DNA of 64,000 nt from Candidatus Limnocylindrales bacterium (lineage in GTDB: Bacteria; Chloroflexota; Limnocylindria; Limnocylindrales; CSP1-4). Positions 27,626 to 49,690 of the stretch are shown in pieces. Where the stretch lies: NCBI GenBank assembly GCA_035699625.1, contig DASSPM010000159.1, positions 11,203 to 75,202 of the forward strand, written 5' to 3'. Position 1 is the stretch's first letter, and each line of letters begins with the position of its first letter. The notes under the pieces were generated by a model. It saw only the letters and a program-made list of their open reading frames with translations, had not been told where the DNA came from and made no database searches. The translations under genes were made by a program, and so were the position numbers.

Positions 27626-27761
27626 GGATCCTCCCGAACGGCGCCTACGCTACACCGCCGCGCGGGACGGTTTCGAGCGACCGTCAGGCCGGCACGGACC
27701 GGCTTGCTACACTGCGGCGGCTCCGGCCGCCGATGGGGGCGGCCGTCTTCCGGAGGTCCCG

Positions 27762-37054: not shown

Positions 37055-37072
37055 GCTACCGTACGGCGGCGC

Positions 37073-37942
37073 ATGAGCATCCCCTCCTCGAAGGCCGTGG
37101 CGTCCGGCCGCCCCGGCGACCCGCGGCCGAGCCTCCTCGGCCTGGTGCGGGCCGGCCTGGACGACCTGCTGACGCGCCGGCGCCTTATCGGCTTCCTGGT
37201 CGGCGCCGACCTCAAGCGGACGCACGCCGACACCATCATCGGCCAGCTCTGGTGGGTCGTCGATCCACTCCTCCAGATGGTCGTCTATGCCGTGCTCGTG
37301 GGGGTCGTCTTCCAGCGCAGCACGCCCGACTTCCCGCTCTTCCTCTTCGCCGCCATCCTGCCCTGGAAGTGGTTCAGCACCACGCTCAGCGACGCAACCA
37401 TCTCGGTCACCAACCGCTCCAGCCTCATCCGCCAGGTGCCCTTCCCGAAGCTGGTGCTGCCGGCGGCCGCGACCCTCGCCGGCACGGTCAGCTTCGCCAT
37501 CGGCCTCGTGGCGCTGGGGGCGGTCTACCTCTTCTATCTGCACCGGCTCAGCCCGTGGCTGCTGACGCTGCCCCTGGTGGCCCTCGTCCAGCTCGTCTTC
37601 ACCTTCTCGTTGGCCGTCCTCTTCGCCGCGCTGAACGCCTTCTATCGCGACGTCCAGAACGTGCTCCGCCATGCCCTGCGACTCTGGTTCTACGTCTCGC
37701 CGACGCTCTACTCGCTGGAGCAGCTCGAGGATCACGGTGAGATCGGGCGCGTCCTTGCGCTCAATCCGATGGCGCCCATCCTGACCAGCTACCGGAGCAT
37801 CATCTGGGGTCACGAGGGCGCCGCCACACGCGCGCCCGAGTGGCTTGGGCTGGGGGCCGTGGTGGTCCTCTCGCTCGTGCTGCTGGCCGTGGCGCTGGCC
37901 GTCTTCAAGCGGGTCGAGCCCGGCTTCGCCAGGATCCTCTGA
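37073..37942 (+). CDS. ABC-2 type polysaccharide/teichoic-acid export permease (Wzm/TagG-like)
   Basis: 289 aa. LIGFLVGADLKRTHADTIIGQLWWVVDPLLQM... has 6 TM helices and is typical of ABC-2 exporters. The ATG at 37073 lies only 18 bp from the divergent GT4 start. Confidence 0.85.
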   Translation: MSIPSSKAVASGRPGDPRPSLLGLVRAGLDDLLTRRRLIGFLVGADLKRTHADTIIGQLWWVVDPLLQMVVYAVLVGVVFQRSTPDFPLFLFAAILPWKWFSTTLSDATISVTNRSSLIRQVPFPKLVLPAAATLAGTVSFAIGLVALGAVYLFYLHRLSPWLLTLPLVALVQLVFTFSLAVLFAALNAFYRDVQNVLRHALRLWFYVSPTLYSLEQLEDHGEIGRVLALNPMAPILTSYRSIIWGHEGAATRAPEWLGLGAVVVLSLVLLAVALAVFKRVEPGFARIL

Positions 37943-38757
37943 TGGACGACCCCGGCGCCCGGCCGGCCATCGATGTCCAGGACCTGGGCGTGCGCTACAA
38001 CCTCAGGCTCACGCGGCGCACCACGCTGAAGGGCTCCCTGGCCGGCCTGGTCCGCTCACGCGACCAGGGCGCGGCGACGCACTTCTGGGCGGTGCGCCAC
38101 CTGACCTTCCGAGTCGCTCACGGCGAGTCGTTGGCCGTCATCGGCCCCAACGGCGCGGGCAAGTCGACGCTGCTGCTGGCGCTGGCGGGCATCCTCCAAC
38201 CCAGCGAGGGGCGCGTCGTGCTCGACGGCCGGGTGTCGACGCTGCTCACGCTGGGCGCCGGCTTCGAGCAGGAGCTCTCCGGGCGCGACAACATCGACCT
38301 GGCGGCCGCCTTCCTCGGCCTGGACCACCGGCAGATGGCCGAGTTGACGCCGCGCATCATCGAGTTCGCCGAGATCGGGCCCTTCATCGATGCGCCGGTC
38401 AAGACCTATTCGAGCGGCATGAAGGCGCGCCTCGGCTTCGCCATCGCCACGGCCATCACGCCCGACATCCTGCTGCTCGACGAGGTCATCGGCACGGGCG
38501 ACCAGGTCTTCCGCGCACGCAGCCAGGCGCGCATCCGTGAGCTGGTGGCCCAGGCGCGGGCGATCGTGCTGGTGACCCACGACATGAGCTTCGTGACCGA
38601 GTTCTGCAACCGGGCCATCCTGCTCGAGAAGGGCACCATCATCCACGAGGGCGAGCCGGCCGAGACGGTCGAGCTCTACCGCGAGCGGGTGCGCCAGCAC
38701 AAGCTGTTGGCCGAGAGCGAGGCGCAGCGCTTCGCGACGATGCCCGGCCAGGGGTAG
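37942..38757 (+). CDS. polysaccharide/teichoic-acid export ATP-binding protein (Wzt/TagH-like, short form)
   Basis: The ATG overlaps the wzm TGA (TGATG). Walker A GPNGAGKST, signature YSSGMKARL and Walker B LLLDEV. At 271 aa it has no C-terminal carbohydrate-binding domain. Confidence 0.9.
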   Translation: MDDPGARPAIDVQDLGVRYNLRLTRRTTLKGSLAGLVRSRDQGAATHFWAVRHLTFRVAHGESLAVIGPNGAGKSTLLLALAGILQPSEGRVVLDGRVSTLLTLGAGFEQELSGRDNIDLAAAFLGLDHRQMAELTPRIIEFAEIGPFIDAPVKTYSSGMKARLGFAIATAITPDILLLDEVIGTGDQVFRARSQARIRELVAQARAIVLVTHDMSFVTEFCNRAILLEKGTIIHEGEPAETVELYRERVRQHKLLAESEAQRFATMPGQG

Positions 38758-38783
38758 ACGTCCCGAGCGCGGGCGGCCCGAGC

Positions 38784-40031
38784 TCAGCCCGGCGGCACCA
38801 GCCGGCCGTAGAGCGCCAGCAGCGTCCCGGCCTGGCGCTCCCAGCCGTAGCGCTCGCGGGCGGCACGCAGGCAGGCCTCCCGGTACGCTGCCCGTCGCTC
38901 CGGCGACGCATCCACGATGTCGCGGATGGCGCGCGCGATGTCCTGCGGGTCACTCGGATCGCAGAGCACGCCGCAGCCGGTCTGGCGCACGATGGCTGCC
39001 ATGCCGGGCAGATCGGAGGCGACCACCGGGGTGCCCGCGCCCATGGCGTCGAAGAGCTTGGTGGGCGTGTTGAGGCGGTGATTGAGCGTGCTGCCGCGAA
39101 CGGGCATGGCCGAGACGTCCGCCGCCGCCGTCCAGGCCGGGATCGCCTCGGGCGCCACGCCCGGCAGGAAGTGGATGCGCTCGGCGTGGGGCAACGAGGC
39201 CGCCAGCGCGCGGTAGTGCTCCAGGCCGCCGCCGACGCCGACCACCGCGAGCACCGCCCGCTCGACCAGCCCGATGGCCGCGAAGAGCTCCTCCAGGCCG
39301 CGGTGCGCCACGACCTGCCCGAGGTAGAGCACGACCCGCGTGTCGGGCGCGAGCCCGAGGGCTCGATGGAAGAGGGGCTCGGGCGGCTCGGGCCGCTGCC
39401 AGGCGGGCGGACAATTCATGACGATGGCCGCAGGCGGGCGGCCCAGGAAGCGCTCGAGCACGCGGGCGTACGGCTCGCTGACCGTGATCCAGGCATCGGC
39501 GCGCGCGACCCAGGCCCGCTCGCGACGGCGAAGGAGCTCCTTCCAGGGCGGCGGCAGGCGCGCGAAGCGGCCGCTCTCGACGTGCACGTCGCGCGAGTCA
39601 TAGACGACGCGGCCGCCCCGGACCCGCGCCAGGGCGAGCGCGACGGGCAGCGTCACCAGGCCCTCGGCCTGCCACAGGTCGCCGTCGGGCGCCGCGCGCT
39701 CGATGTCCCGGGCCCAGCGTCGCGTGAGGGCCAGGTAGCGCAGCGCCTGCAGGCCGCGCCCGAGGCTGTCGCGGACGTAGCCGGCCGGACCGCGCAGACC
39801 CGCCGCGGTCGGGTCCGGCAGCGGGGGCGCCGGCAGCCAGCGCGGGGCGGCGGGCTGGGGCACGCGCAGGACGCGGAAGCCGTCTCGCTCCTCGGTCACC
39901 GGCAGGTCGGGCCCGCCACGTGCCACGACCGTGACCGACCAGCCCGCGGCGCTGGCCGAGCGAGCGATCTTCCAGGAGCGCGAGTCGGTCAGGAACGGGT
40001 TGTTGAGCAGCAGCACCAGGCGCCGCGTCAC
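38784..40031 (-). CDS. glycosyltransferase, paralog D of a four-member tandem family
   Basis: GTG 40031 overlaps the upstream TGA (GTGA). Motifs shared with the paralogs: NNPFLTDSR..., VVYDSRDVHVE, NCPPAW and STLNHRLNTPTKLFDAMGAGTPVV. Confidence 0.82.
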   Translation of the reverse strand: MTRRLVLLLNNPFLTDSRSWKIARSASAAGWSVTVVARGGPDLPVTEERDGFRVLRVPQPAAPRWLPAPPLPDPTAAGLRGPAGYVRDSLGRGLQALRYLALTRRWARDIERAAPDGDLWQAEGLVTLPVALALARVRGGRVVYDSRDVHVESGRFARLPPPWKELLRRRERAWVARADAWITVSEPYARVLERFLGRPPAAIVMNCPPAWQRPEPPEPLFHRALGLAPDTRVVLYLGQVVAHRGLEELFAAIGLVERAVLAVVGVGGGLEHYRALAASLPHAERIHFLPGVAPEAIPAWTAAADVSAMPVRGSTLNHRLNTPTKLFDAMGAGTPVVASDLPGMAAIVRQTGCGVLCDPSDPQDIARAIRDIVDASPERRAAYREACLRAARERYGWERQAGTLLALYGRLVPPG

Positions 40032-41353
40032 CCCTGCCCCTCCCCCGCAGCCAGCCGCCGGTAGAGCTCCCGCAGGCCAGCCTGCTGCGCCTCCCAGGTG
40101 TAGCGCTCGAGCGCCACGCGCCGGCAGTGGGCGCGCAGCCGCTCCCGCTCGTAGGCGGGCGTGGCGAGCATGGCCCCGGCCGCCTCGGCGATGGCCCGCG
40201 GCGAGTCCACGTCGCAGCAACGGCCGACGGCCTCGGCCGTCACCAGGCGGCAGTGCTCGGTGCCTTCGGCCACCAGCACCGGCACGCCCGCCATCAGGCT
40301 CTCGAAGAGCTTGTTGGCGAGGTTGAGGCGCTGGTTGAGCGTGCGCGGCGGCTGGCCCACGAAGCAGAGGTCGGCCGAGGCGGTCCACTCGAGCAGTTCG
40401 CTCGGCGGCACGGCCTGCAACACGAAGAGGCGGCCGGGGCGCGCCGCCGCCTCGCGCAGCAGCGGCTCGCGCAGGCGCCCGTAGCCGAGCAGCACCACCA
40501 CCGCCCCCGTCTCCGCCAGGGCGGGCTCGTCGAGCGCCGCGACGAGCTCCTCGATGCCCCGGTCGACACTCAGGCCGCCCTGGTAGAGCACGATGGGCGC
40601 CTCGGGCGGGACGCCCACGGTGTCGCGCAGCCGCCTGCTCGCCGGCGGTCCGGGCTCGTCGGGGCGCCATGCCGGTGGGCAGTTGAGGAGGGTCACCGGC
40701 CGGGCGACGCCGAAGCGCCTCTCCACTTCCGCGGCGACCGCCTCGCTGACGGCCGTGAGTCCCGCCGCTTCGCGCACCCAGGCTGCCTCGCGGCCGCGGA
40801 CCAGGGCACGCACGGGAGCCGGCATCCGACCGAGTCGCGCCGCCTCGGTGTGGATGTCGGCGATGTCATAGACGAAGCCGCCGCCGGTGCGAGCGGCGGC
40901 CGCGCGGATGACCGGCAGGGCGATGAGTGCCTTGGCATGGAAGACCTGTGCGTCGGGCGCGGCCCGCACGACCGCGTCGGTCCAGGGCCCGACACGCCGG
41001 GCGTGGGCGGCGATCTCGACCAGCCGGCGCAGGGGCGCGCGCAGGCGGTCGGCGCCGTGCGCCGGGGCCGCCGGCAGCACGGTCGCCTCGGGCTCGAAGC
41101 CGAGTGCCCGGGCCAGTGCGCCGCGCACGCCGTCGGGCAGCGGCCGCAGGGCGCCGGCCACCGTCCGGTCGATGTCGACGCGCACGACACGGACCCCCTC
41201 GCGAAGCGTCTGCTCGACCGCCAGCCCGGGCGCGGCGAAGGCGACCACGGTCACCGCGTGCCCATCCGCGGCGAGCGCCGTGGCGGTGCGCAGCAGGCGT
41301 GAGTCGTGCTCGAAGGTGTTGGCAGCCACGATGGCCACGCGCAGCTCAGCCAC
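40028..41353 (-). CDS. glycosyltransferase, paralog C
   Basis: GTG 41353 overlaps the upstream stop by 8 nt. Motifs ANTFEHDSR, FVYDIADIHTE, NCPPAW and RTLNQRLNLANKLFESLMAGVPVL. Confidence 0.82.
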   Translation of the reverse strand: MAELRVAIVAANTFEHDSRLLRTATALAADGHAVTVVAFAAPGLAVEQTLREGVRVVRVDIDRTVAGALRPLPDGVRGALARALGFEPEATVLPAAPAHGADRLRAPLRRLVEIAAHARRVGPWTDAVVRAAPDAQVFHAKALIALPVIRAAAARTGGGFVYDIADIHTEAARLGRMPAPVRALVRGREAAWVREAAGLTAVSEAVAAEVERRFGVARPVTLLNCPPAWRPDEPGPPASRRLRDTVGVPPEAPIVLYQGGLSVDRGIEELVAALDEPALAETGAVVVLLGYGRLREPLLREAAARPGRLFVLQAVPPSELLEWTASADLCFVGQPPRTLNQRLNLANKLFESLMAGVPVLVAEGTEHCRLVTAEAVGRCCDVDSPRAIAEAAGAMLATPAYERERLRAHCRRVALERYTWEAQQAGLRELYRRLAAGEGQG

Positions 41354-42629
41354 GGCCGGGTACCAGGCGGTCGGCGAGCTCGAGATAGGCCGGCGCGTGC
41401 ACGTCCCAGGCATAGCGCTCGGCGACGAGGCGGCGGGCCCGCTCGCGGCGCGCGCGGCGCTCCGCCGGCGGCGTGTCGAGCAGGGCGGCCAGGGCGGCGG
41501 CGATGGCGACCGGGTCGTCGTGCGTGGCGGCGATCCCCAAACCATCGGGCTCGACCACCCGCCGGATGCCCTCGAGCTCCCGCCCGTAGACGATGGGCGT
41601 GCCGCCGGCCAGGCTCTCCCAGAGCTTGTTGGGCGTTGAGAGGCGCAGGTTGAGCGTGCTGCCCGGGCTGACGAAGATGGTCGCGTCGGCACCTGCGGCC
41701 CAGCGCGGCACGTCGGCGGGCGGGACCGGCGGCAGCGTCACGTGGCGCCCCGGCCGTGCCGCGTCGCGCCGCCGGAGCTCCTCCTCGAGCGGGCCGTAGC
41801 CGAGGGCGACGAAGGCCGCCGTCGGCAGGCGCAGCACGGCGTCGCCCGCCTCCAGCAGCCCCCGACCGGGCACGAACCGGCCCAGGAAGAGGACGATGGA
41901 CACCTCGCGCGGCAGGCCAGCGGCTTCGCGCAGCAGCGTCGTCTCGCCGGTCGGCAGCTCGTCGCGCGCCGGGCAGTTGTAGAGCACCAGCGGCGGGCGG
42001 CTGAGGCCCCAGCGGCCCAGCGCGTCGTCGGCCAGGGCGTCGTTGACGGTCGTCAGGCCATCCACGTCGCGCACGAGGCGCGCCTCGCGCCGCCGATAGA
42101 GGGCACGGCGCCAGGCCGGCAGGGAGGGGTAGCGGCTGGCCTCAAGGAAGATGTCGATCATGTCGTAGACGACGCGCCCGGCGGCGCCCTCGCGACGGGC
42201 GCGGCGCGCCAGGTCGCGTGCCGCCCAGGCCGCCCCGAGACCGCAGGCATGGTAGAGGTCGGCCGGTGGCAGGCTACGCAGCCCGTGGCTCCAGGCACGC
42301 GCGGCGAGCGGCCAGGCGGCGACCTGGGCCAGTGCCCCCGGCGTCGGCAGGCCGCCGCGGCGCGCCGCCCGCTCCAGGGGTCCGCGCCGCTCGTGCAGGA
42401 ACGCGGCCAGCGGGCCGGCCGGCGCCACGCGCCGCAGGGTCACGCCGGGCGTGCCGGCATCGTGCTCGACCTCGGGCAACCCCTCCCCGGCCAGGCCGAC
42501 GACGGAGACCTGCCAGCCCGCGCCGGCGAGCGAGCGAGCCACGCGGTCGGTGCGCGCGTACGCCCGCAGCGTCTTATGCGAGAGCACCACGGCGCGGCGC
42601 GCCGCCGGGCGATCGGGCGGTGCGGCCAC
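41346..42629 (-). CDS. glycosyltransferase, paralog B
   Basis: GTG 42629. Motifs VVYDMIDIFLE, YNCPA and STLNLRLSTPNKLWESLAGGTPIV. Its N-terminal motif is the most divergent of the four (SHKTLRAYARTDR). Confidence 0.82.
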   Translation of the reverse strand: MAAPPDRPAARRAVVLSHKTLRAYARTDRVARSLAGAGWQVSVVGLAGEGLPEVEHDAGTPGVTLRRVAPAGPLAAFLHERRGPLERAARRGGLPTPGALAQVAAWPLAARAWSHGLRSLPPADLYHACGLGAAWAARDLARRARREGAAGRVVYDMIDIFLEASRYPSLPAWRRALYRRREARLVRDVDGLTTVNDALADDALGRWGLSRPPLVLYNCPARDELPTGETTLLREAAGLPREVSIVLFLGRFVPGRGLLEAGDAVLRLPTAAFVALGYGPLEEELRRRDAARPGRHVTLPPVPPADVPRWAAGADATIFVSPGSTLNLRLSTPNKLWESLAGGTPIVYGRELEGIRRVVEPDGLGIAATHDDPVAIAAALAALLDTPPAERRARRERARRLVAERYAWDVHAPAYLELADRLVPGRG

Positions 42630-42633
42630 GGTC

Positions 42634-44094
42634 TCAGGCAGCCTCGGGCGCGAGCGGCGCCTGCGGGGCGGGCGCGGACGCTTCGCTGCCCAGCAGGCGC
42701 CGGTAGAGGTCGATCAGAGCGGCCGACTCGGTCTCCCAGTTGTAGCGCTCCAGCGCCGCCTGGCGGCAGCGGCGGCGGAGCTCGAGCCGCGCCTCCGGCG
42801 AGAGGCGCAGGATACGCGCGAAGGCGAGCGCCACGGAGCGCGTGTCGGACGGGTCGCAGACCTCGCCCACGCCGCTCTCGCGGACCACGCGCGCCATCTC
42901 AGGGAAGTCGCTCACGACCACCGGCACACCGGCGGCGAGGCTCTCCCAGAGCTTGTTGGGCGTGGCCAGGTAGTGGTTGAGGGTGCTGCGCTCGATGGGC
43001 GCGCCGGTCACGTCGGCCGAGGCGGTCCACTCGAGCAGCACGTCCGGCGATACCGCGTCGACCACGAAGACCCGGCCGGGTCGGGCACGTGCCTGCTCCT
43101 CGAGCCAGGCCCGCATCGCGCCGTAGCCGAGGAAGACTGCCACGGCGTCGGAGAGCTCCGGCTCGTCGAGCGCGCCGATGATGCGCTCGATGCCACGGTG
43201 GAGCGTGAAGGAGCCCTGGTAGAGCAGGATGGGGCGATCGGTCGCGATGGGCAGGCCGGCCGTCGTCCGGAAGTGGTCCCGCACCGGGGGCTCGGGTGAC
43301 GCCGGCAGCCAGCGGGGCGGGCAGTTGCGCACGACCACCGGCGCGGGAACGCCGTAGCGACGCACGAGCTCGCCGGCGATGGACTCGTTGACCGTGACCA
43401 CCCCGTCCACCCGTCGCAGCAGCGCCGCCTCCAGGCGGGCGGCGAGGCGGCGCGTGCGGGGCTGCATGGAGGCGGCGGCGCGGCCCGACTCGAGGTAGAG
43501 CTCGTGGCTGTCGTAGACGACCAGGCCGCCCGCCCGGCGCGCATGACGCACGGCGTGCGCCAGCACCGGCAGATCGTGGGCATGGTAGACGTCGGCCTTG
43601 GGGAGCAGGTCACGCCCGTGGCGATACCAGGCGTAGAGCTGCCAGGCGAGGCCCGTCCAGAAGGAGGTCCGCCGCAGGACGGCGTAGGCAAGGCGGTCCA
43701 GCCGGTACGCACCGATCTGGCCCAGCTCGCGCGGGCCGCGCTGCGCCAGGCGCCGGAGGCGCGCCAGAGCACGGTCCGTGACCGGCGCGTCCGCGGGCGC
43801 GCGCGACAGCCCCGGCCGGTCCAGGCTCGCTCGCAGCAGGGCCACGGCCGGCACGCGCCGGATGACGAAGCCATCGCGCGCTTCCTCGGCCGGCAGGCCG
43901 TGCGCGGCCCGCGCCACGATGGTCACCTCGCCGCCCGCCGTGGCAAGGCTGGCCGCCTCGCGCAACACGCGCGAGTCGGTGGTGCAGTCGTTGAAGACGA
44001 ACATGCACACCCGCCGCCCCTGGAGTGGCCGGTGGGCGATCGTGGCGTCGAGGCGCGTGGCGTCGGTGACCGCGGGGCCGCTGGGCGCCTCCAT
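42634..44094 (-). CDS. glycosyltransferase, paralog A
   Basis: ATG 44094 overlaps the epimerase TGA by 1 nt. Motifs FNDCTTDSR, VVYDSHELYLE, NCPPRW and STLNHYLATPNKLWESLAAGVPVV. Confidence 0.82.
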   Translation of the reverse strand: MEAPSGPAVTDATRLDATIAHRPLQGRRVCMFVFNDCTTDSRVLREAASLATAGGEVTIVARAAHGLPAEEARDGFVIRRVPAVALLRASLDRPGLSRAPADAPVTDRALARLRRLAQRGPRELGQIGAYRLDRLAYAVLRRTSFWTGLAWQLYAWYRHGRDLLPKADVYHAHDLPVLAHAVRHARRAGGLVVYDSHELYLESGRAAASMQPRTRRLAARLEAALLRRVDGVVTVNESIAGELVRRYGVPAPVVVRNCPPRWLPASPEPPVRDHFRTTAGLPIATDRPILLYQGSFTLHRGIERIIGALDEPELSDAVAVFLGYGAMRAWLEEQARARPGRVFVVDAVSPDVLLEWTASADVTGAPIERSTLNHYLATPNKLWESLAAGVPVVVSDFPEMARVVRESGVGEVCDPSDTRSVALAFARILRLSPEARLELRRRCRQAALERYNWETESAALIDLYRRLLGSEASAPAPQAPLAPEAA

Positions 44095-45272
44095 CAGCCC
44101 GCCAGCCAGTCGGTGACGGCGCCGGCCACGGCGCGCGCCACTCCGGCAGGCGCGACGGTGGCGCCCGCCGCTCGGCGGCGCGCCTCAGCGGCCGCCGAGT
44201 CGCCCGGTGCCAGCCGGCCAAGGGCCGCGCGCGCCCGCCCGCTGTCGCGGCCCACGAGGAGCGCTCGACCGCCCGAGGCGACGAGCGTCTCGGGCCACTC
44301 CGTCGTTTCGCGCAGCACCAGCGCCGGCACGCCCAGCCAGTGCGCCTCGCGCTGGACGCCGCCGGAGTCGGTCACCACGGCGGCGGCGTGGAGCTGCAGG
44401 GCGAGCGTGGTGCGGTAGCCCAGGGGTGGCAACAGGTGCACACCCGCAGGGACCACCGAACCGTGCTCGTCGATGACCCGCTTGGTGCCCGGGTGGAGCG
44501 CCAGCGCCACCGGTCGATCGAGCTCGCCCAGGAGGCGGAGCCACTCTGCCGTCGCAGCGGGCTCGCGGTTCTCGGCACGGTGCACCGTGGCGAAGAGGTA
44601 CTCGCCGGGTCGCAGGCTTAGCTCCCGCACCGCATCGGGCGCCGCCGCGCCGATGCTGTCTGGCTGGCGTACCTGGTCGATGGTCGCCGCCAGGAGGTCC
44701 TGCATCAGGTCGCCCACGACGACGATGCGCTGGCGGTGGTGCCGAGCCGAGCCGCTGTCCGCGTCCGCGCCGTCCGCGTCGGCCAGACGCTCCACGGCGA
44801 TGCCCTCCGCGCGCAGGTTGCGCGCCGCCTCGTCGCCGGTCACGAGCAACAGCCCCGAGAGGTGGTCGACCACGACGCGGTTGAGCTCCTCGGGCATGCG
44901 CCGGTCGTAGCTGCGCAGGCCGGCCTCGACGTGCGCCAGGGCCAGATCCAGCTTCGACGCCGCCAGCGCCCCGGCCAGGGTCGAGTTCGTGTCGCCGAAG
45001 ACGACCACCGCGTCGGGCCGCTCGTCGAGCAGCAGCGGCTCGAGCCGGTCGAGCATGGCCGCCGTCTGGCGCGCGTGGCTGCCGCTGCCCACGCCCAGCT
45101 CGTGGTCGGGCAGGGGCAGGCCCAGCTCCGCGAAGAAGGTGCCCGCCAGCTGTTCGTCGTAGTGCTGGCCCGTGTCCACCAGCACGGGCTGGTGCGCCTC
45201 GCGCAGGGCCGGCCAGGCCGCCGCCGCCTTGATCAGCTGGGGCCTGGTGCCGACGACACAGACGAGCTTCAC
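44094..45272 (-). CDS. wecB: UDP-N-acetylglucosamine-type 2-epimerase, non-hydrolysing (WecB/WbpI-like)
   Basis: VVGTRPQLIKAAA...DTGQHYD...GSGSHARQTA...VFGDTNSTLAGALAA...HVEAGLRS.D..MPEE.NR. Confidence 0.9.
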   Translation of the reverse strand: MKLVCVVGTRPQLIKAAAAWPALREAHQPVLVDTGQHYDEQLAGTFFAELGLPLPDHELGVGSGSHARQTAAMLDRLEPLLLDERPDAVVVFGDTNSTLAGALAASKLDLALAHVEAGLRSYDRRMPEELNRVVVDHLSGLLLVTGDEAARNLRAEGIAVERLADADGADADSGSARHHRQRIVVVGDLMQDLLAATIDQVRQPDSIGAAAPDAVRELSLRPGEYLFATVHRAENREPAATAEWLRLLGELDRPVALALHPGTKRVIDEHGSVVPAGVHLLPPLGYRTTLALQLHAAAVVTDSGGVQREAHWLGVPALVLRETTEWPETLVASGGRALLVGRDSGRARAALGRLAPGDSAAAEARRRAAGATVAPAGVARAVAGAVTDWLAG

Positions 45273-46702
45273 GCGCCCCCGCTCGACGAGCTCGCCGCGG
45301 CCAGGCGCCTGCCGTTGCGGGCGCCGCGTGCTCCCTCTCGCCCGTTCGGGAGGCCGACGCCGATGTAGCGCACGTCGTCGGGCCGCGGCACGTCGCGCAG
45401 GCCGTTGCGGCCGTCGTAGACGACGCGGAGTGCCGGGAAGCGGCCGTAGTCGATGGCCCGGTAGAGCGGATCGGCCGTCTGGAGCACGATGGCCACGGCG
45501 TCCGATCCGTCGCCCCAGGTGTAGGGCTCGGCGCCGAGGCGCCGGACCTCGTCGGCAGAGAGGAGCGGGTCGTGGGCGTGGACCTGGGCGCCGTGGAAGC
45601 GGAGTCGCTCGATGAGCGGCAGGGCGCGCGAGTAGGCCAGCTCCTTGACCCCCGCGCGATAGGTGAGCCCGAGCACGAGCACCGGCACTCCCTCCAGCGA
45701 GCCGAGCTCGCGCTGCAGCTCCTGCACGGCCAGCCCGACCTGGCCGTCGTTGACGCGGCGCGAGATGACCGGCAGCTGGAGCTCAGGCGCGCGGTGGATC
45801 AGGAAATGCGGGTAGACGGGGATGCAGTGGCCGCCGACGCCGATGCCGGGCTGGTGGATGTGCGAGAAGGGCTGGCTGTTGGCGCCGCGGATGACCTCCT
45901 CGACGTCGACGCCGACGCGTTCCGCGTAGCGCGCGAACTCGTTGGCCAGGGCGATGTTGACGTCGCGGTAGGTCGTCTCGGCCAGCTTGGCGAACTCGGC
46001 CGCCTCGGCCGACGAGAGTCGCCAGACCTCGGCCGGCAGCACGCTGCGGTAGAAGGCGACCGCCCGCTCGGCGCTGGCGGCGTCGACGCCGCCGACCAGC
46101 TTGGGGTAGGTGGCCAGGTCGCGGAAGACGCGCCCGGTGAAGACGCGCTCGGGACTGAAGGCGAGCAGGAAGCCGGCCTCCGCGTCGCCCAGGGTCAGGC
46201 CGCTGGCGGCCTCGAGGGCGGGTCCGAAGCGAGTGCGCGTGTCGCCCACCGGCAGGGTCGTCTCGTAGACCACCAGGCAGCCGGGGTGGAGGCCCTCCCC
46301 GACGGCCTGCGTCGCGCTGTCCAGCCAGCGGTAGTCGGGCAGCTGCTCATCGGAAAGCATGAGCGGCACGATCATGACCACCACGTCGGCGCGGCGCGCA
46401 GCCTCGGCATGGGAGAGCGTGGCCTCGAAGCGGCCCGCGGCGTGGGCCTCGGCGATGCGCTCCGCGAGCCCCGGCTCCTCGTCGACGTGGACCCGACCGG
46501 CGTTGAGCGTCTCGACCACGTCGGGCAGCACGTCCACCCCGATGACGTGCCAGCCGGACGCCGCGTACTGGGCCGCCAGGGGCAGCCCGATCTTGCCCAT
46601 ACCGACCACGGCCACCGTGCCGACCGTGCCCGGCTCGCCCCGCCAGGGCGACACGTGGCGGCGCGACTCGGTCGGAGCGCTGTCGGGCAGCGGCTGGGTC
46701 AT
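45269..46702 (-). CDS. UDP-sugar 6-dehydrogenase (UDP-GlcNAc/ManNAc dehydrogenase, WbpA/WecC-like)
   Basis: ATG 46702 (ATGA overlap) gives 477 aa. Rossmann motif VAVVGMGKIGLPLA and catalytic GIGVGGHCIPVYP. Confidence 0.88.
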   Translation of the reverse strand: MTQPLPDSAPTESRRHVSPWRGEPGTVGTVAVVGMGKIGLPLAAQYAASGWHVIGVDVLPDVVETLNAGRVHVDEEPGLAERIAEAHAAGRFEATLSHAEAARRADVVVMIVPLMLSDEQLPDYRWLDSATQAVGEGLHPGCLVVYETTLPVGDTRTRFGPALEAASGLTLGDAEAGFLLAFSPERVFTGRVFRDLATYPKLVGGVDAASAERAVAFYRSVLPAEVWRLSSAEAAEFAKLAETTYRDVNIALANEFARYAERVGVDVEEVIRGANSQPFSHIHQPGIGVGGHCIPVYPHFLIHRAPELQLPVISRRVNDGQVGLAVQELQRELGSLEGVPVLVLGLTYRAGVKELAYSRALPLIERLRFHGAQVHAHDPLLSADEVRRLGAEPYTWGDGSDAVAIVLQTADPLYRAIDYGRFPALRVVYDGRNGLRDVPRPDDVRYIGVGLPNGREGARGARNGRRLAAASSSSGGA

Positions 46703-47721
46703 CCGGGCACCTCCTCGAGGGCGACGTCGATGGGGCGGTGCTGCGTGGCCGACGCGAGCAGCAGGTTGGCCAGCACGACGGCCCACAGGCCGTCCTCGCC
46801 GCCCACCACGGGCGGGCTGCCGTCGCGCACGGCGGTGAAGAAGGCGTCGAGCTCGCGCCGCAGCGGCTCGGCCGGCTCGACCGGAAGGTGGACCGTCTCA
46901 CCGGCGAAGGTGGGCGCATAGCCGTCGAGGTAGGTCGGCGCCAGGTCGGCCGCGCCGCGCGTGAAGGTGAGCGACTGGGAGAGGTAGTCGGCCACGAACA
47001 TGCCCTCCTCGCCGAGCACGGTCACGCGGCGCTGCTTCTCCGGCGTCAGCCAGTTGACGTCGAGCGTGGCCAGGGTGCCGCCGGGGAAGGAGAGGAGGCC
47101 GTAGAGCAGGTCCTCGTGGGCGGTGTGGACGTGCTGCGTGGTCTCGGCGTAGACGCGGCTGGGACGCTCCCCAACCAGGTGGCAGATGACGTCCACGTCG
47201 TGCGTCGCCAGGTCGACGGCCACGCCCACGTCGCGGATGCGCTCCGGCAGGGGCCCACCGCGGACCGTCTTGACGCTGAAGATGCGCGACAGCGCGCCGC
47301 CGCGCAGCCGCTCCCCGAGGGCCAGCACGGCCGGGTTGAAGCGCTCGATATGGCCCGCCTGGAGGACCACGCCCGCGGCCCGTGCGGCGTCCACCAGCTC
47401 GCGCGCCTCGTCCACGGTCGCGGCCAGCGGCTTCTCCACGAGCACCGGCACGCCGCGCTCGATGGCCGCCAGCGCGACACGGTGGTGGAGTGTCGTGGGT
47501 ACGGCCACGATGAGTGCGTCGAGCTGCTCCTCCTCGAGCATCGCCAGCGGGTCGGCGAAGTCGCGCGCCGAGGAGGCCTGCTCGGCGGCCGTGATGCGCG
47601 CCGGCATGGAGGGATCGGCCAGCGCCACCAGCCGCACGTCGTCGCGGGCGACGAGGTTGCGCAGGTGGTTCCGGCCCATCGTGCCGAGGCCGGCCAGGCC
47701 GACGCGCAGGCGTGCGCTCAC
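46699..47721 (-). CDS. Gfo/Idh/MocA oxidoreductase (WbpB-like UDP-sugar 3-dehydrogenase candidate)
   Basis: VGLAGLGTMGRNHLRNL...VLVEKPLAATVDEAREL...GHIERFNPA. GTGA overlap with the aminotransferase gene. Confidence 0.85.
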   Translation of the reverse strand: MSARLRVGLAGLGTMGRNHLRNLVARDDVRLVALADPSMPARITAAEQASSARDFADPLAMLEEEQLDALIVAVPTTLHHRVALAAIERGVPVLVEKPLAATVDEARELVDAARAAGVVLQAGHIERFNPAVLALGERLRGGALSRIFSVKTVRGGPLPERIRDVGVAVDLATHDVDVICHLVGERPSRVYAETTQHVHTAHEDLLYGLLSFPGGTLATLDVNWLTPEKQRRVTVLGEEGMFVADYLSQSLTFTRGAADLAPTYLDGYAPTFAGETVHLPVEPAEPLRRELDAFFTAVRDGSPPVVGGEDGLWAVVLANLLLASATQHRPIDVALEEVPG

Positions 47722-48836
47722 GCCGGCCCCGCCTCCGAGCCGACGGCCTCGGCGAGCGGCGTGGCCACCTCGCGCACGGCGGCGATGATCGTCTCGAGCT
47801 CCTCCTCGGTCAGGTCCGGCCGCACCGGGATCGAGAGGACCTCCTCGGAGAGGCGTTCGGTGACGGGCAGCGAGACGTCGGCCGACTCGGGCGCGAGGCG
47901 CTTCAGATAGGGCTGGCGGTGCACCGGCACGGGGTAATAGATGAGCGTGCCGATGCCGCGCTCGGTGAGGCCCTCGACCACGCGTTCCCGCTCGCCGGGG
48001 AAGCGCATCGTGTACTGGTGCCAGACGTGCTCGCGGCCTTCCGGGACGCGCGGCGTGAGGTAGCCGCGCAGGCCCTCGCTGAGGCGGGCGGCGTTACGCC
48101 GGCGGCGCTCCGTGCGCTCGTCGAGCTGGGCCAGCCCGGCCATGCCCAGCGCCGCCGCAAGGTCCGTCGGCTTGAAGTTCGTGCCCAGCGCCTCGTGGTG
48201 GTAGCGCACGCGCATGCCGTGCGCGCGGTAGAGGCGCAGGCGATCGGCCAGTCCGTCGTCGTCGGTGGTGGCGAAGCCGCCCTCGCCGGTCATCAGGTTC
48301 TTGGTCGCGTAGAGGCTGAACATGGCCGGCCCGAAGCTGCCCGCGCGGCGGCCGCCGTAGGTCGCTCCGTGCGCCTGCGCGGCGTCCTCCAGCAGCAGCA
48401 GCCCGTGGCGCTGCGCGATCGCCGTGAGCGGCTCCATGTCGGCCATCAGGCCATACAGGTGGACCGGCATGATGGCCCGCGTGCGGGGCGTGATGGCGGC
48501 TTCCACGAGGGCGGGGTCGATGGTGAAGTCGTCCTCGCGGATGTCCACGAAGACCGGCCGCGCGCCGGTCTGCAGGATGACGCTGGCGGTCGCGTTGAAG
48601 GTGAAGGCAGGGCAGATGACCTCGTCGCCCGGGCTGATGTCGAGGCAGCGCAGGATGGCCTCCATGGCGACCGTCCCGTTGGCCATCAGCACGGCGTGGC
48701 GCACGCCGCAGTAGTCGGCCCAGGCCCGCTCGAACTCCTCCGTCCGGCGGCCCATGGCCAGCATCCCCGAGCGCAGCACCTCGAGCACGGCCTGCTCCTC
48801 GCGCGGGCCGATCTCGGGCCTCGAGATTGGGATCAT
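47718..48836 (-). CDS. DegT/DnrJ/EryC1/StrS-family sugar aminotransferase (WbpE-like)
   Basis: IPISRPEIGPREEQAVLEVLRSGMLAMG...NGTVAMEA...FSLYATKNLMTGEGG, which contains the PLP lysine context. Confidence 0.9.
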   Translation of the reverse strand: MIPISRPEIGPREEQAVLEVLRSGMLAMGRRTEEFERAWADYCGVRHAVLMANGTVAMEAILRCLDISPGDEVICPAFTFNATASVILQTGARPVFVDIREDDFTIDPALVEAAITPRTRAIMPVHLYGLMADMEPLTAIAQRHGLLLLEDAAQAHGATYGGRRAGSFGPAMFSLYATKNLMTGEGGFATTDDDGLADRLRLYRAHGMRVRYHHEALGTNFKPTDLAAALGMAGLAQLDERTERRRRNAARLSEGLRGYLTPRVPEGREHVWHQYTMRFPGERERVVEGLTERGIGTLIYYPVPVHRQPYLKRLAPESADVSLPVTERLSEEVLSIPVRPDLTEEELETIIAAVREVATPLAEAVGSEAGPA

Positions 48837-49525
48837 GCGCCGGCCTCGCCCGCCGCCAGGGCTGCCGCGTCAGCGGGCGCAGCGTTGCCGGGCCCGTCCG
48901 GCGCGACACGCTCGGCGGCCTCCTCGGAGACGACGGCATCGCCCGAGATGAGGAAGCGCCGACCGTCGCGCGGGCAGCGCCCGATGCCGTGTGCCTCGCC
49001 CGGCAGCGGCCGACCGTCGCCGTCGACGAGGCGCCGGCCGCAGTCGCAGACCCAGCCCATGCGGCGGGCCGGGTTGCCGGCCACCAGCGCGTGGTCGGGC
49101 ACGCTGCGCGTGACCACCGCGCCGGCCGCCACCAACGCGAAGCGACCGACGTCCGCTCCGGCCACGACGATCGCCCCGGCACCGACCGACGAGCCGTAGC
49201 GCAGCGTGATCGGGCTCAGCTCCCAGTCCGCATCGCGCGCCAGCTCGCCGTCCGGCGTGATGGAGCGCGGGAAGCGGTCGTTGGTGAGGATCGCGCCCGG
49301 CCCGATGAAGACGGCCGATTCCACGGTCACGCCGTGGTAGACGAGCGCGCCGTTCTGGATCTTGACCTTGTCGCCGACGTGCACTCCGGCATCGACGTAG
49401 GCGTCTTTGCCGATGATGCAGTCGTCGCCGATGACCGCCCCTTCGCGCACCTGCGCCCGGTTCCAGATGCTCGTCCCCTGGCCGATGCGCGCGTCCGGAG
49501 CGATGTCGGCGGAGGGATGGATCAC
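48833..49525 (-). CDS. hexapeptide-repeat N-acetyltransferase (WbpD-like) with a Cys/His-containing C-terminal extension
   Basis: GTG 49525 lies 10 nt after AAGGAG. The left-handed beta-helix repeats are IGQGTSIWNRAQVREGAVIGDDCIIGKDAYVDAGVHVGDKVKIQNGALV. The C-terminus carries WVCDCG...HGIGRC. Confidence 0.85.
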   Translation of the reverse strand: MIHPSADIAPDARIGQGTSIWNRAQVREGAVIGDDCIIGKDAYVDAGVHVGDKVKIQNGALVYHGVTVESAVFIGPGAILTNDRFPRSITPDGELARDADWELSPITLRYGSSVGAGAIVVAGADVGRFALVAAGAVVTRSVPDHALVAGNPARRMGWVCDCGRRLVDGDGRPLPGEAHGIGRCPRDGRRFLISGDAVVSEEAAERVAPDGPGNAAPADAAALAAGEAGA

Positions 49526-49690
49526 GAGTGTGGGACTCCTTCCGCGGCTGCGGCGGGAGTGTAGCGGAAAGGGTGCCCGGGTCAGCCCGGCCGGCAGGGG
49601 TCGTGCAGGCGACAGCACGCGCGCCCGGTTTCGGGGACCATAGGCGGCACGCCCGAACGGGCGGCACAGACTGCCCGTGACGGGGGACCC

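Follow-up and report, generated by a model that had tools for sequence, protein, structure and literature searches.

Geobacillus stearothermophilus and its relatives, which are monoderm Bacillota, possess anionic secondary cell-wall polymers (SCWPs) that contain ManNAc3NAcA and anchor surface-layer proteins. The Wbp/Wlb systems (P. aeruginosa WbpA/B/E/D/I, Bordetella WlbA-D and Thermus thermophilus HB27; PMC10622841) belong to diderms, in which they serve LPS or glycolipid synthesis. In Streptomyces griseus and S. antibioticus, the teichuronic-acid-like (TUA) cluster utrA-J encodes five enzyme types (6-dehydrogenase, oxidase plus aminotransferase, N-acetyltransferase and 2-epimerase) together with glycosyltransferases (GTs) (PMC13274773, Cell 2025). 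Its products are ManNAc3NAcA and/or GlcNAc3NAcA wall polymers, as determined by NMR; the GTs are TarS-like and TarM-like, the polymer is attached as a graft to ribitol-phosphate teichoic acid, and no dedicated ABC exporter is mentioned for it (PMC13274773).

We analyzed a stretch of 64,000 nucleotides (the window) from an uncultured member of the Chloroflexota, class Limnocylindria (a Candidatus Limnocylindrales MAG; the host is no actinobacterium), for which the original prediction had proposed an envelope glycopolymer locus that matches no described system. This last claim is contradicted by the utr cluster, which also belongs to a high-GC monoderm (PMC13274773): this kind of system is already known, and the present locus is a further example of it, in the Chloroflexota. 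As judged from the published description of utr rather than from utr sequences, both systems combine the five enzyme types with dedicated GTs, and in both the content of GTs and modifying genes varies between species. They differ in that utr is found in Actinomycetota, whereas the Chloroflexota system comprises between one and four paralogues from a distinct GT4 subfamily along with a wzm/wzt pair of its own; the window showed no teichoic-acid genes. The Wbp/Wlb systems have the five enzyme families in common with the locus, and among solved structures it is their epimerase and acetyltransferase that come closest to the window proteins, the specificity residues of the epimerase being shared. 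Wall teichoic and teichuronic acid assembly and mycobacterial galactan assembly rely on TagGH or Wzm/Wzt export and on ligation by LytR-CpsA-Psr (LCP) proteins. The locus resembles them in its ABC-2 permease and ATPase of TagGH/galactan-Wzt type, its cytoplasmic GT-B transferases and an LCP gene close by, but the window is without polyol-phosphate genes (TagD/TarIJ), TagO/TagA linkage-unit genes were not found in it, and the polymer predicted for it is a glycan of diacetamido-uronic acid. The rare sugar of the Geobacillus polymers, which occur in Bacillota, is predicted here for Chloroflexota.

Coordinates of the features of the locus and its surroundings in the window (junctions are given between the genes that they join)
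Feature	Coordinates	Strand	Assignment and remarks
LCP glycopolymer transferase	27441..29204	+	Pfam LytR_cpsA_psr, 110 bits; open frame, start may differ
U739, unannotated soluble GT-B-fold enzyme	33742..35727	-	661 aa; HP motif VVVKLHPGEKD; AlphaFold/Foldseek
GTdiv, divergent GT4	35777..37054	-	Pfam GT4 domains
wzm/tagG-like ABC-2 permease	37073..37942	+	289 aa; Pfam ABC2_membrane, 37 bits (cutoff 26.9); hydrophobic segments found
wzt/tagH-like ABC exporter ATPase	37942..38757	+	271 aa; Pfam ABC_tran
GT4 paralogue 4	38784..40031	-	415 aa; Pfam; last gene of the operon
Junction, GT4 paralogues 3/4	40028-40031	-	GTGA overlap
GT4 paralogue 3	40028..41353	-	441 aa; Pfam
Junction, GT4 paralogues 2/3	41346-41353	-	8-nt overlap
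GT4 paralogue 2	41346..42629	-	427 aa; Pfam
Junction, GT4 paralogues 1/2	42630-42633	-	4-nt gap
GT4 paralogue 1 ('core' GT)	42634..44094	-	486 aa; Pfam Glycos_transf_1 and Glyco_transf_4
Junction, 2-epimerase/GT4 paralogue 1	44092-44096	-	TGATG, 1-nt overlap
Non-hydrolysing UDP-sugar 2-epimerase, WbpI/WlbD type	44094..45272	-	392 aa; TIGR00236
Junction, 6-dehydrogenase/2-epimerase	45269-45272	-	GTGA overlap
UDP-N-acetylhexosamine 6-dehydrogenase, UDPG/MGDP dehydrogenase family	45269..46702	-	477 aa; three Pfam domains; TIGR03026
Junction, Gfo/Idh/MocA dehydrogenase/6-dehydrogenase	46699-46702	-	ATGA overlap
Gfo/Idh/MocA NAD-dependent oxidoreductase	46699..47721	-	340 aa; Pfam; predicted UDP-HexNAc(A) 3-dehydrogenase
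Junction, aminotransferase/Gfo/Idh/MocA dehydrogenase	47718-47721	-	GTGA overlap
DegT/DnrJ/EryC1 PLP-dependent nucleotide-sugar aminotransferase	47718..48836	-	372 aa; Pfam PF01041, 399 bits
Junction, acetyltransferase/aminotransferase	48833-48836	-	ATGA overlap
Hexapeptide left-handed beta-helix N-acetyltransferase, WlbB/WbpD type	48833..49525	-	230 aa; Pfam Hexapep
Divergent intergenic region, presumed promoter	49526..49690		165 bp; acetyltransferase start to start of plus-strand alpha-glucosidase at 49691
GT4 of GT4/GT2 pair	54663-55952	-	Pfam
GT2 of GT4/GT2 pair	55952-56830	-	Pfam

The nine translationally coupled genes that had been proposed, with their domains and junctions, were all confirmed by ORF, junction and Pfam/NCBIfam checks. 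The nine minus-strand ORFs run from 49525 to 38784 with the predicted starts and stops and without internal stops, in the domain order Hexapep acetyltransferase, DegT aminotransferase, Gfo/Idh/MocA dehydrogenase, UDPG_MGDP dehydrogenase, Epimerase_2 and four GT4/Glycos_transf_1 proteins. In Chloroflexi bacterium CSP1-4 (L004), the orthologous operon consists of these nine genes as well and overlaps by 1-4 nt at each junction, so the tight coupling is no accident of a single genome. The start used here for the acetyltransferase was also picked by an independent gene caller, and a ribosome-binding site (GGAAGGAG) lies 8 nt ahead of this GTG, the first start codon of the operon. A scan for promoters and terminators within the operon gave nothing exceeding chance, and we infer that the nine genes are co-transcribed. 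The upstream intergenic region is only presumed to act as the promoter, because no sigma-70 consensus was found in it by the promoter scan.

Comparisons with enzymes of known structure placed the five sugar enzymes with differing precision. The top PDB match of the acetyltransferase was 3MQG, WlbB of Bordetella petrii (129 bits, E 2e-36), in an alignment that spans residues 2-194 and includes the C-terminal segment (extension) of WlbB. Further 3-amino-sugar N-acetyltransferases (4MZU, 7S43 and QdtC) came next, whereas the 4-amino N-acetyltransferases PglB-ATD and PerB reached just ~35 bits in this ranking; the enzyme is predicted to be a 3-N-acetyltransferase, within the group of such enzymes. 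For the aminotransferase, 7B0D, perosamine synthetase, ArnB, DesV, WbpE and QdtB all scored 315-385 bits with the family profile; it is not specifically WbpE-like, and as judged from these scores the PDB ranking leaves its regiospecificity undecided. The best curated model for the Gfo/Idh/MocA enzyme was NF040723 (archaeal UDP-GlcNAc 3-dehydrogenase), matched end to end with 261 bits, below the cutoff of 450. Its family profile retrieved 3Q2K (B. pertussis WlbA, 125 bits), 7BVJ (GnnA, 121) and 3Q2I (C. violaceum WlbA, 116), so that WlbA and GnnA, which are nucleotide-sugar 3-dehydrogenases, were the top PDB matches of known function, and the Thermus/Pseudomonas WlbA type was absent from the 60 best. 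Assignment to the P. aeruginosa/Thermus WbpB type was rejected, the enzyme lying as far from B. pertussis WlbA as from GnnA, the UDP-GlcNAc 3-dehydrogenase. None of the dehydrogenase, aminotransferase and acetyltransferase reached an NCBIfam equivalog cutoff, the aminotransferase with none of the models. The 6-dehydrogenase exceeded the TIGR03026 cutoff (316 bits, cutoff 190), and its top PDB matches were 4R16, the UDP-ManNAc dehydrogenase of P. horikoshii, with 231 bits and Cap5O with 180 bits; no UDP-glucose dehydrogenase scored above 135 bits. By these scores it sits in the UDP-HexNAc dehydrogenase group, nearest to UDP-ManNAc dehydrogenases, and the step order may therefore differ from that of Wbp.

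The 2-epimerase also exceeded its family cutoff (TIGR00236, 220 bits, cutoff 210), and its top PDB match was 8SXV, the T. thermophilus UDP-GlcNAc3NAcA 2-epimerase (237 bits, compared to 107 for E. coli WecB). Three positions that tell a 3-acetamido substrate from UDP-GlcNAc have been reported for the Thermus enzyme (PMC10622841), and at one of them all UDP-GlcNAc 2-epimerases have an Arg that binds the 3-OH. The window enzyme has RPQLIK-A (Ala18), F-G-D (aromatic at 96) and TE-W-PE (Trp307, replacing Arg) at these positions. The Ala18 and position-96 motifs recurred in most of the ~50 cassette-linked orthologues examined, and TEW was present in all ~35 whose stretch a simple pattern search located. 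The pocket would thus fit a 3-acetamido group, its pattern being that of the 3-acetamido-specific Thermus enzyme.

The WbpD-E-B-A-I-type pathway of the original prediction was therefore upheld for the five enzyme types, the epimerase and the acetyltransferase, and not for a WbpB-type dehydrogenase or a WbpE-like aminotransferase. Clustering with enzymes of another pathway had been named as the observation that would speak against it: the acetyltransferase fell on the WlbB side, the dehydrogenase tied between WlbA and GnnA, and the aminotransferase matched perosamine synthetase and ArnB at least as well as WbpE. Since the epimerase and the acetyltransferase fit a route to UDP-ManNAc3NAcA, they argue against the scenario of plain UDP-ManNAcA that had been considered. 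The departures from Wbp/Wlb (a dehydrogenase not of the Pseudomonas/Thermus WbpB type, an aminotransferase not specifically WbpE-like and a WecC-like 6-dehydrogenase) mean that C6 oxidation may come last and not first; the resemblance of the 3-dehydrogenase and 6-dehydrogenase to enzymes acting on UDP-GlcNAc and UDP-ManNAc would allow more than one step order.

Among 82 loci analyzed, nearly all cassette-bearing ones coming from Limnocylindria or other Chloroflexota MAGs, the cassette order was identical in 37 complete loci and in 17 truncated or variant ones. The five-gene sugar cassette was invariant in the 37 related loci, whereas the number of GT4 paralogues ranged from 1 to 4, contradicting the earlier view that the cassette is hard-wired to four GTs. 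GT number is variable in other surface-polysaccharide loci as well. Paralogue 1, whose PDB matches were generic GT4 structures only, is the sole one kept in one-GT loci such as L005; an NCBI protein from a Candidatus Limnocylindrales MAG matches it with 100% identity. Paralogue 2 is 34-36% identical to the three others and paralogue 3 is 36-41% identical to its paralogues; identities to the CSP1-4 orthologues amount to 69% for paralogue 2, where the orthologue is 1:1, 69% for paralogue 3 and 70% for paralogue 4.

The system extends past the nine genes and includes wzm/wzt, the divergent GT4, the GT-B enzyme and the LCP gene. The ABC exporter that had been proposed is real, its genes lying on the plus strand and convergent with the operon, with 26 nt between the stop codons of GT4 paralogue 4 and wzt; the wzt ATG overlaps the wzm stop (TGATG). 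Wzm gave weak matches to the NCBIfam galactan Wzm and KpsM models. Wzt consists of the nucleotide-binding domain only, without a C-terminal carbohydrate-binding domain, and its NCBIfam scores (TagH 171-193 bits, galactan Wzt 180 bits) were all under the cutoffs. GTdiv is kept in most loci and is 59% identical to its same-position orthologues in CSP1-4 and L005; its start is uncertain, as just 18 nt separate the ATG at 37054 from the wzm start and orthologues have ~393 aa, and the gene may in fact begin around 36970. U739 itself gave no match in Pfam and NCBIfam scans, and 11 of 24 members of its family weakly matched PF04464 (Glyphos_transf). Its AlphaFold model (pLDDT 88, pTM 0.88) has a generic GT-B fold that Foldseek matched to 2-epimerases, Tps1 and TagF; homologues occur in loci L061, L064, L066 and L068, and some family members carry a fused GT4 or GNAT domain. 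U739 is remotely TagB/TagF-like and an accessory that some of the related loci have. The LCP protein, with one hydrophobic segment N-terminal of its domain, exceeded the TIGR00350 cutoff (100 bits, cutoff 62), the TagU and LytR equivalogs staying under theirs; located ~9.6 kb from the operon end, it is a candidate for attaching the polymer to peptidoglycan that is tied to this polymer by proximity only. The GT4/GT2 pair, whose GT2 weakly matched NCBIfam polyprenyl-phospho-sugar synthases, neighbours the locus in most relatives (syntenic in L003, L004, L005 and many others) and possibly belongs to the same envelope system. Large secreted GH18/FlgD_ig/CHU_C proteins adjoin the locus and are conserved there.

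Based on the present data, we consider it probable that the operon is the core of an ABC-transporter-dependent envelope glycopolymer locus, which would make a UDP-ManNAc3NAcA-type sugar for an exported teichuronic-acid-like wall polymer. The five coupled enzymes would convert UDP-GlcNAc to UDP-2,3-diacetamido-2,3-dideoxy-D-mannuronic acid: the Gfo/Idh/MocA dehydrogenase would oxidize C3, the DegT enzyme would transaminate, the WlbB-like acetyltransferase would N-acetylate, and the WbpI/WlbD-type epimerase would epimerise C2. The UDP-HexNAc 6-dehydrogenase would oxidize C6, at the start of the route as in Pseudomonas or at its end. The four soluble GT4 paralogues, the divergent GT4 and the adjoining GT-B enzyme would then assemble a chain rich in uronic acid on a polyprenyl carrier, on the cytoplasmic side, presumably after an initiating step; a phosphoglycosyl transferase of the WecA/TagO or WbaP type was not found among the scanned window ORFs. 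The chain would be exported via Wzm/Wzt, and the LCP transferase probably joins it to peptidoglycan.

The cassette could also serve two sugars, the acetyltransferase-aminotransferase-3-dehydrogenase trio making UDP-GlcNAc3NAc from UDP-GlcNAc and the epimerase and 6-dehydrogenase making plain UDP-ManNAcA as an ordinary WecB/WecC pair, for one heteropolymer. The UDP-GlcNAc 3-dehydrogenase model NF040723, the equal scores of GnnA and WlbA, and the UDP-ManNAc dehydrogenases 4R16 and Cap5O would suit such a division of labor, but the Trp in place of Arg, Ala18, the aromatic residue at 96 and the Thermus 3-acetamido-specific top match of the epimerase would not. Moreover, trio and pair were in no case seen separately in cassette-bearing loci, those apparently without the 6-dehydrogenase having frameshift-split genes on inspection, and we regard this division as quite improbable. 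A role of the DegT enzyme as 4-aminotransferase, with another diamino or acetamido uronic acid as the product of the cassette, is suggested by the profile of the enzyme, which favours perosamine synthetase (368 bits) and ArnB (341) over WbpE (326). However, regiospecificity in the DegT family is polyphyletic, the best characterised matches of the partner oxidoreductase are 3-dehydrogenases, the acetyltransferase belongs among the 3-N-acetyltransferases rather than to the PglD/PerB type, and the epimerase pocket suits a 3-acetamido group. As no SDR 4,6-dehydratase domain turned up in the scanned ORFs of the locus and its flanks, no 4-keto route is evident there; a decarboxylating 4-oxidase was likewise absent from these ORFs, and this reading has a very slight chance of being correct.

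A different destination of the glycan is rather unlikely: it might decorate surface (S-layer-like) glycoproteins, for example the giant GH18/FlgD_ig proteins, or form a capsule or exopolysaccharide that is free or lipid-anchored. ABC-transporter-dependent routes serve S-layer glycans and capsules too, the secreted proteins are conserved beside the locus, and the LCP gene lies apart from the operon. Nevertheless, the scanned ORFs include no oligosaccharyltransferase, O-antigen-ligase-like (Wzy_C) or capsule export proteins, the LCP protein in the window is over its domain cutoff, and the nearest experimentally studied analogues, the Streptomyces TUA and the Geobacillus SCWP, are wall-bound.

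For the wall-polymer reading, which we prefer, Limnocylindria is assumed to be monoderm, as taken from its phylum (PMC10608941). That the polymer anchors the neighbouring giant surface proteins is speculation only. The locus would represent an ABC-transporter-dependent system for a teichuronic-acid-like wall polymer that is conserved across an uncultured class.

The minus strand of the window carries nine uninterrupted ORFs running from 49525 to 38784, whose starts, stops and junctions all agree with the original prediction. The predicted gene order was likewise recovered with Pfam and NCBIfam: a Hexapep acetyltransferase, a DegT aminotransferase, a Gfo/Idh/MocA oxidoreductase, a UDP-sugar 6-dehydrogenase and a non-hydrolysing 2-epimerase (together the sugar cassette), followed by four glycosyltransferases (GT) of family GT4, here called paralogues 1 to 4. 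The first five genes are joined by four 4-nt overlaps (ATGA or GTGA), the epimerase gene and that of paralogue 1 by a 1-nt overlap (TGATG), and the subsequent junctions are a 4-nt gap, an 8-nt overlap and a last GTGA. GGAGG-like ribosome-binding sites are found upstream of several of the starts, and we infer that the nine genes are co-transcribed. A 165-bp divergent intergenic region lies upstream of the first gene. A consensus scan of positions 37000-50500 gave no sigma-70 promoters or intrinsic terminators above shuffled expectation, and searching the entire window with Rfam revealed no riboswitch or leader RNA, the sole RNA gene detected being a tRNA-Pro (TGG) at 14212-14286 on the minus strand. 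At the distal end of the operon, the stop codons of paralogue 4 and of the convergent wzt gene are 26 nt apart (38757-38784), while in the Chloroflexi bacterium CSP1-4 locus (L004) the corresponding stop codons overlap by 4 nt (15271-15274), which leaves little or no room for a terminator between the opposed transcription units. The G+C content of the window is uniformly 70-77%. Long plus-strand ORFs also overlie the operon, such as 47712-49199 and 34961-37942; since the domains and the third-position GC favour the minus-strand genes, we rejected these as shadow ORFs of high-GC DNA.

The epimerase provides the strongest test of which sugar is made. Its best match in the PDB is 8SXV, the UDP-GlcNAc3NAcA 2-epimerase of Thermus thermophilus (237 bits, compared to 107 bits for Escherichia coli WecB). 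UDP-GlcNAc 2-epimerases have a conserved Arg that contacts the 3-OH, a Leu or Met after the substrate-binding Lys, and a His or Gln two residues before the catalytic Asp, whereas the 3-acetamido-specific Thermus enzyme has Trp307, Ala18 and Tyr96 at these three positions (PMC10622841). The window epimerase, with the motifs RPQLIK-A, F-G-D and TE-W-PE, shares the Thermus pattern: Trp replaces the 3-OH-binding Arg, Ala the Leu/Met, and an aromatic residue the His/Gln. Among approximately 50 cassette-linked orthologues, the Ala and aromatic motifs are present in most, and TEW occurs in every one of the approximately 35 whose corresponding stretch was found by a simple pattern search. Both the PDB ranking and these residues thus point to the predicted WbpI/WlbD-type 2-epimerase specific for a 3-acetamido UDP-sugar, and they are direct evidence against plain UDP-ManNAc(A) being made. 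The acetyltransferase gives a concordant picture. Its best PDB match is WlbB of Bordetella petrii (3MQG, 129 bits), nearly over the full length and including the C-terminal segment; other 3-amino-sugar N-acetyltransferases come next, and the 4-N-acetyltransferases of the PglD/PerB type reach only about 35 bits. This ranking is that expected of a left-handed beta-helix 3-N-acetyltransferase of the WbpD/WlbB type, as had been predicted.

The remaining three enzymes are less clear-cut. When the family profile of the Gfo/Idh/MocA enzyme was compared to the PDB, WlbA of Bordetella pertussis (125 bits), the almost equally scoring UDP-GlcNAc 3-dehydrogenase GnnA (121) and WlbA of Chromobacterium violaceum (116) ranked just below one uncharacterised Thermotoga protein and above the inositol dehydrogenases, and the WbpB type of Thermus and Pseudomonas was absent among the best 60 matches. 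The best curated model is NF040723, an archaeal UDP-GlcNAc 3-dehydrogenase (261 bits, cutoff 450). Judged by these comparisons, the enzyme is a relative of the nucleotide-sugar 3-dehydrogenases but does not appear to belong to the WbpB type of Pseudomonas and Thermus. The 6-dehydrogenase groups with UDP-HexNAc dehydrogenases, and the closest solved structures are those of the UDP-ManNAc dehydrogenases 4R16 (231 bits) and Cap5O (180 bits). The aminotransferase, a DegT family member (399 bits), is the weak point of the pathway reading. Its family profile matches perosamine synthetase (368 bits), ArnB (341) and WbpE (326) in the PDB, and neither single-sequence nor family-profile comparison separates 3- from 4-specificity, so that the position of amination is not fixed by the sequence alone. 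An exact-match look-up of this protein returned two short Logan contigs only, whose context was uninformative. The aminotransferases of loci L016 to L082 fall into two classes, with either 72-78% or 51-57% identity to that of the window, among loci whose 3-dehydrogenase, 6-dehydrogenase and epimerase are all 55-65% identical to their window counterparts; the aminotransferase gene thus has a different history from the other cassette genes, by recombination or through two lineages.

Taken as a proposal for a WbpD-E-B-A-I-type pathway, the original prediction therefore stands for the epimerase and the acetyltransferase, but the 3-dehydrogenase does not look WbpB-like and the aminotransferase is not specifically WbpE-like. 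We read the cassette as probably producing UDP-ManNAc3NAcA, with UDP-GlcNAc3NAc(A) possibly serving as a donor too; oxidation at C6 could come first, as in Pseudomonas, or last. That the product might instead be a 4-amino sugar is suggested only by the aminotransferase scores. The genomic context favours amination at C3, since the scanned ORFs of the locus and its immediate surroundings include no 4,6-dehydratase, the oxidase that partners the aminotransferase is related to 3-dehydrogenases, and a 3-acetamido group suits the two downstream enzymes. Production of two separate sugars, UDP-GlcNAc3NAc and UDP-ManNAcA, is disfavoured, because the residues of the epimerase speak against it.

The polymer locus reaches beyond 38784-49525 (Table). 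The predicted exporter, an ABC-2 permease and its ATPase, was confirmed by Pfam and NCBIfam matches and by its conserved position, the wzm/wzt pair being convergent to the glycosyltransferase genes in most of the loci. Its best NCBIfam matches are TagH and the galactan Wzt/Wzm, below the equivalog cutoffs. Wzt is without a carbohydrate-binding extension, and a terminal cap therefore probably does not gate export. The LCP gene lies approximately 9.6 kb from the operon. No initiating transferase of the TagO/WecA or WbaP type was found among the scanned ORFs of the 64-kb window, in which small ORFs were incompletely covered; the initiating phosphoglycosyl transferase may be encoded elsewhere in the genome. 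Indeed, tagO is often encoded away from the polymer locus. On the other side of the cassette, where a GT4/GT2 pair lies between the DUF3048 and the giant GH18 genes, relatives carry a single DUF3048 gene as a conserved neighbour, oriented against the cassette. CSP1-4 and L076 have a homologue of the giant GH18 proteins at the same position beside their polymer locus, and the giant proteins may be surface proteins that are functionally linked to the polymer. Elsewhere in the window, and unrelated to the polymer locus, a GGDEF diguanylate cyclase gene (5533-7398, minus strand) near one for a GAF-EAL phosphodiesterase (8916-10250, minus strand) suggests c-di-GMP signalling in the host.

Features of the polymer locus and its neighbourhood. 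Positions refer to the window; functions are predicted.
Feature	Position	Strand	Evidence or remark
LCP glycopolymer transferase	27441-29204	+	TIGR00350, 100 bits (cutoff 62)
U739	33742-35727	-	661 aa, soluble; adjoins GTdiv
GTdiv, a further GT4-family enzyme	35777 to about 37054	-	Pfam; divergent from wzm
ABC-2 permease (wzm)	37073-37942	+	Pfam ABC2_membrane above cutoff
ATPase (wzt)	37942-38757	+	ABC_tran; TGATG overlap with permease stop
GT paralogue 4	38784-40031	-	GT4 family
GT paralogue 3	40028-41353	-	GT4 family
GT paralogue 2	41346-42629	-	GT4 family
GT paralogue 1	42634-44094	-	GT4 family
2-Epimerase	44094-45272	-	
6-Dehydrogenase	45269-46702	-	
3-Dehydrogenase	46699-47721	-	Gfo/Idh/MocA
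Aminotransferase	47718-48836	-	DegT
Acetyltransferase	48833-49525	-	Hexapep
Alpha-amylase-family glucosidase	49691-51286	+	between cassette and GT4/GT2 pair
DUF3048 paralogue	51346-52560	+	between cassette and conserved GT4/GT2 pair
DUF3048 paralogue	53262-54650	+	between cassette and conserved GT4/GT2 pair
Giant GH18/Big_13/CHU_C/FlgD_ig protein	56869-60885	-	1338 aa
Giant GH18/Big_13/CHU_C/FlgD_ig protein	61000-63462	-	about 820 aa

The four tandem glycosyltransferases are old paralogues, with a mutual identity of 34-41% and 54-70% identity to their 1:1 orthologues in CSP1-4. A family profile of paralogue 1 matched only generic GT4 enzymes in the PDB (an SPS-like protein, PimA and MshA), which provides no clue to donor or acceptor. 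All four paralogues (38784-44094, alignment A1) have in common an invariant motif, TLN-x5-(P)NK-L-(F/W)-E, at the site where typical GT4 enzymes carry E-x7-E; the first Glu of the latter is presumably absent from them. Because no more than 18 nt separate the annotated starts of GTdiv (37054) and wzm (37073), GTdiv probably begins further in. U739, encoded next to GTdiv, has no match in Pfam or NCBIfam. Its AlphaFold model is confident (pLDDT 88) and has a generic GT-B fold, the protein contains a KLHPGE 'HP' motif, and 11 of its 24 homologues weakly match the TagB/TagF family. Homologues occur in a subset of the related loci (L061, L064, L066 and L068), and some homologues also carry a fused GT4 or GNAT domain. 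A role as glycerophosphotransferase is unsupported, the fold being generic and the TagB/F signal remote and seen via homologues only. U739 and its homologues look like an orphan family of glycosyl- or phospho-transferases that goes with these polymer loci.

A profile scan of GTDB species representatives with paralogue 1 yielded 80 loci, nearly all from metagenome-assembled genomes (MAGs) of Limnocylindria or other Chloroflexota. In the CSP1-4 locus all nine genes recur, again with overlapping junctions, together with the convergent wzt/wzm pair and the divergent GT4 gene, between GH18-GT2-GT4 on one side and a PPIase gene on the other; on a JGI contig (L005) the five sugar genes are accompanied by a single glycosyltransferase gene. 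When 82 loci were mapped with the window proteins, the complete cassette was found in 37, always in the order acetyltransferase, aminotransferase, 3-dehydrogenase, 6-dehydrogenase, epimerase, and a partial one in 17 further loci, most of which end at a contig end or at the flank limit. In a comparison meant to show whether the 3-amino trio and the epimerase/6-dehydrogenase pair can occur as separate modules, three loci that appeared to be without a 6-dehydrogenase gene (L040, L041 and L076) proved to have this gene split by frameshifts, and the other apparent exceptions ended at the flank limit. The number of GT4 paralogues between epimerase and transporter varied considerably: the 36 complete intervals contained one (5 loci), two (13), three (13) or four (5). 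The cassette is thus the fixed part of the locus and the glycosyltransferase set its variable part, and the idea that the pathway is hard-wired to four glycosyltransferases was not borne out. Such variation is usual in surface-polysaccharide loci. Where a locus has one glycosyltransferase, paralogue 1 is the one kept. At the same chromosomal slot, three Chloroflexota loci (L044, L057 and L069) keep the flanking GT2/GT4 pair (the PPIase gene is also seen in L044) and are devoid of the five-gene cassette; they have other glycosyltransferases, and their epimerase is of another type (GARPNFIKA), which suggests replacement of the whole locus at a fixed site. Outside Limnocylindria, a gene resembling paralogue 1 lies beside a Trp-type epimerase and wzm/wzt in a Pirellulales MAG (L056), and beside an aminotransferase, acetyltransferase and 3-dehydrogenase trio in a Dehalococcoidales MAG (L085). 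This hints that the GT4 subfamily of paralogue 1 is tied to diacetamido sugars.

The pathway read for the cassette is the one known from the WbpA/B/E/D/I enzymes of Pseudomonas aeruginosa, WlbA-D of Bordetella and their Thermus homologues. Contrary to the original view that no described system matches, a monoderm locus that bears direct comparison has been published: in the utrA-J cluster of Streptomyces griseus, genes for several glycosyltransferases accompany those for a UDP-sugar dehydrogenase, an aminotransferase/oxidase pair, an N-acetyltransferase and a 2-epimerase (PMC13274773, 2025). Its product, a [3)GalNAc-alpha(1-4)-ManNAc3NAcA-beta(1] polymer, is attached to wall teichoic acid, with the TarS-like glycosyltransferase UtrC grafting the uronic acid chain to the ribitol-phosphate teichoic acid; Streptomyces antibioticus makes a beta-1,4 GlcNAc3NAcA homopolymer, and the glycosyltransferase and modifying genes differ between species (PMC13274773). 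The window locus is set apart from the published description of utr by its phylum, by tandem GT4 (GT-B) paralogues in place of TarS/TarM-like glycosyltransferases, by an ABC exporter of its own, and by the lack of polyol-phosphate genes among the scanned window ORFs. On the strength of this likeness and these four differences, we do not count it as a member of the utr system itself but regard it as a teichuronic-acid-like wall polymer locus that depends on an ABC transporter, rather than as a new kind of system. Its parts and logic are familiar and it reveals no new mechanism.

On this basis, the five coupled enzymes would supply the activated acidic sugar. As judged from family membership and neighbourhood, the soluble GT4 paralogues, GTdiv and U739 would extend the chain on a cytoplasmic polyprenyl carrier, Wzm/Wzt would export it, and the LCP enzyme would move it onto peptidoglycan. 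It is possible that the glycan is protein-linked or capsule-like rather than a wall polymer, as the conserved giant surface proteins next to the locus could indicate, but no oligosaccharyltransferase or ligase was seen among the scanned ORFs. Returning to the wall polymer, a broader reading is that the locus, fixed in the chromosome throughout the uncultured class Limnocylindria, makes the main anionic wall polymer of the class, a ManNAc3NAcA-rich teichuronic acid, with the one to four tandem GT4 paralogues per species each adding one residue and the TagF-like GT-B protein helping. We put this forward tentatively and consider it somewhat more likely to be wrong than right. If true, no envelope glycopolymer would have been predicted for Limnocylindria before this one, and the GT4 subfamily that builds it would be a previously uncharacterised one; the polymer might anchor the adjacent giant GH18/FlgD_ig surface proteins, and the variable glycosyltransferases would reflect diversifying selection by phage or toxin receptors, as in the Streptomyces polymers.

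The host, originally described as a high-GC monoderm, belongs to the Chloroflexota, class Limnocylindria, and is not an actinobacterium. Although the G+C content of 74% suggested an actinobacterial origin, paralogue 1 and U739 are each 100% identical to NCBI proteins of a Candidatus Limnocylindrales MAG. Chloroflexota are counted among the monoderm Terrabacteria, and the taxonomic survey that lists Limnocylindria (formerly Ellin6529/CSP1-4) mentions no cultured member (PMC10608941). The class is widespread in soil and freshwater and is known here from metagenome-assembled genomes only, and the literature searched held no description of its envelope. With this locus, the known occurrence of the ManNAc3NAcA pathway extends to a further monoderm phylum. 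The value of the analysis lies in the prediction, for an uncultured class that is widespread, of a defined envelope component, an unusual acidic sugar that offers a target for wall analysis and for lectin or antibody probes in cell sorting as well as a basis for phage-receptor prediction, and in the variation from one to four glycosyltransferases, a natural series with which linkages may be assigned to single paralogues.
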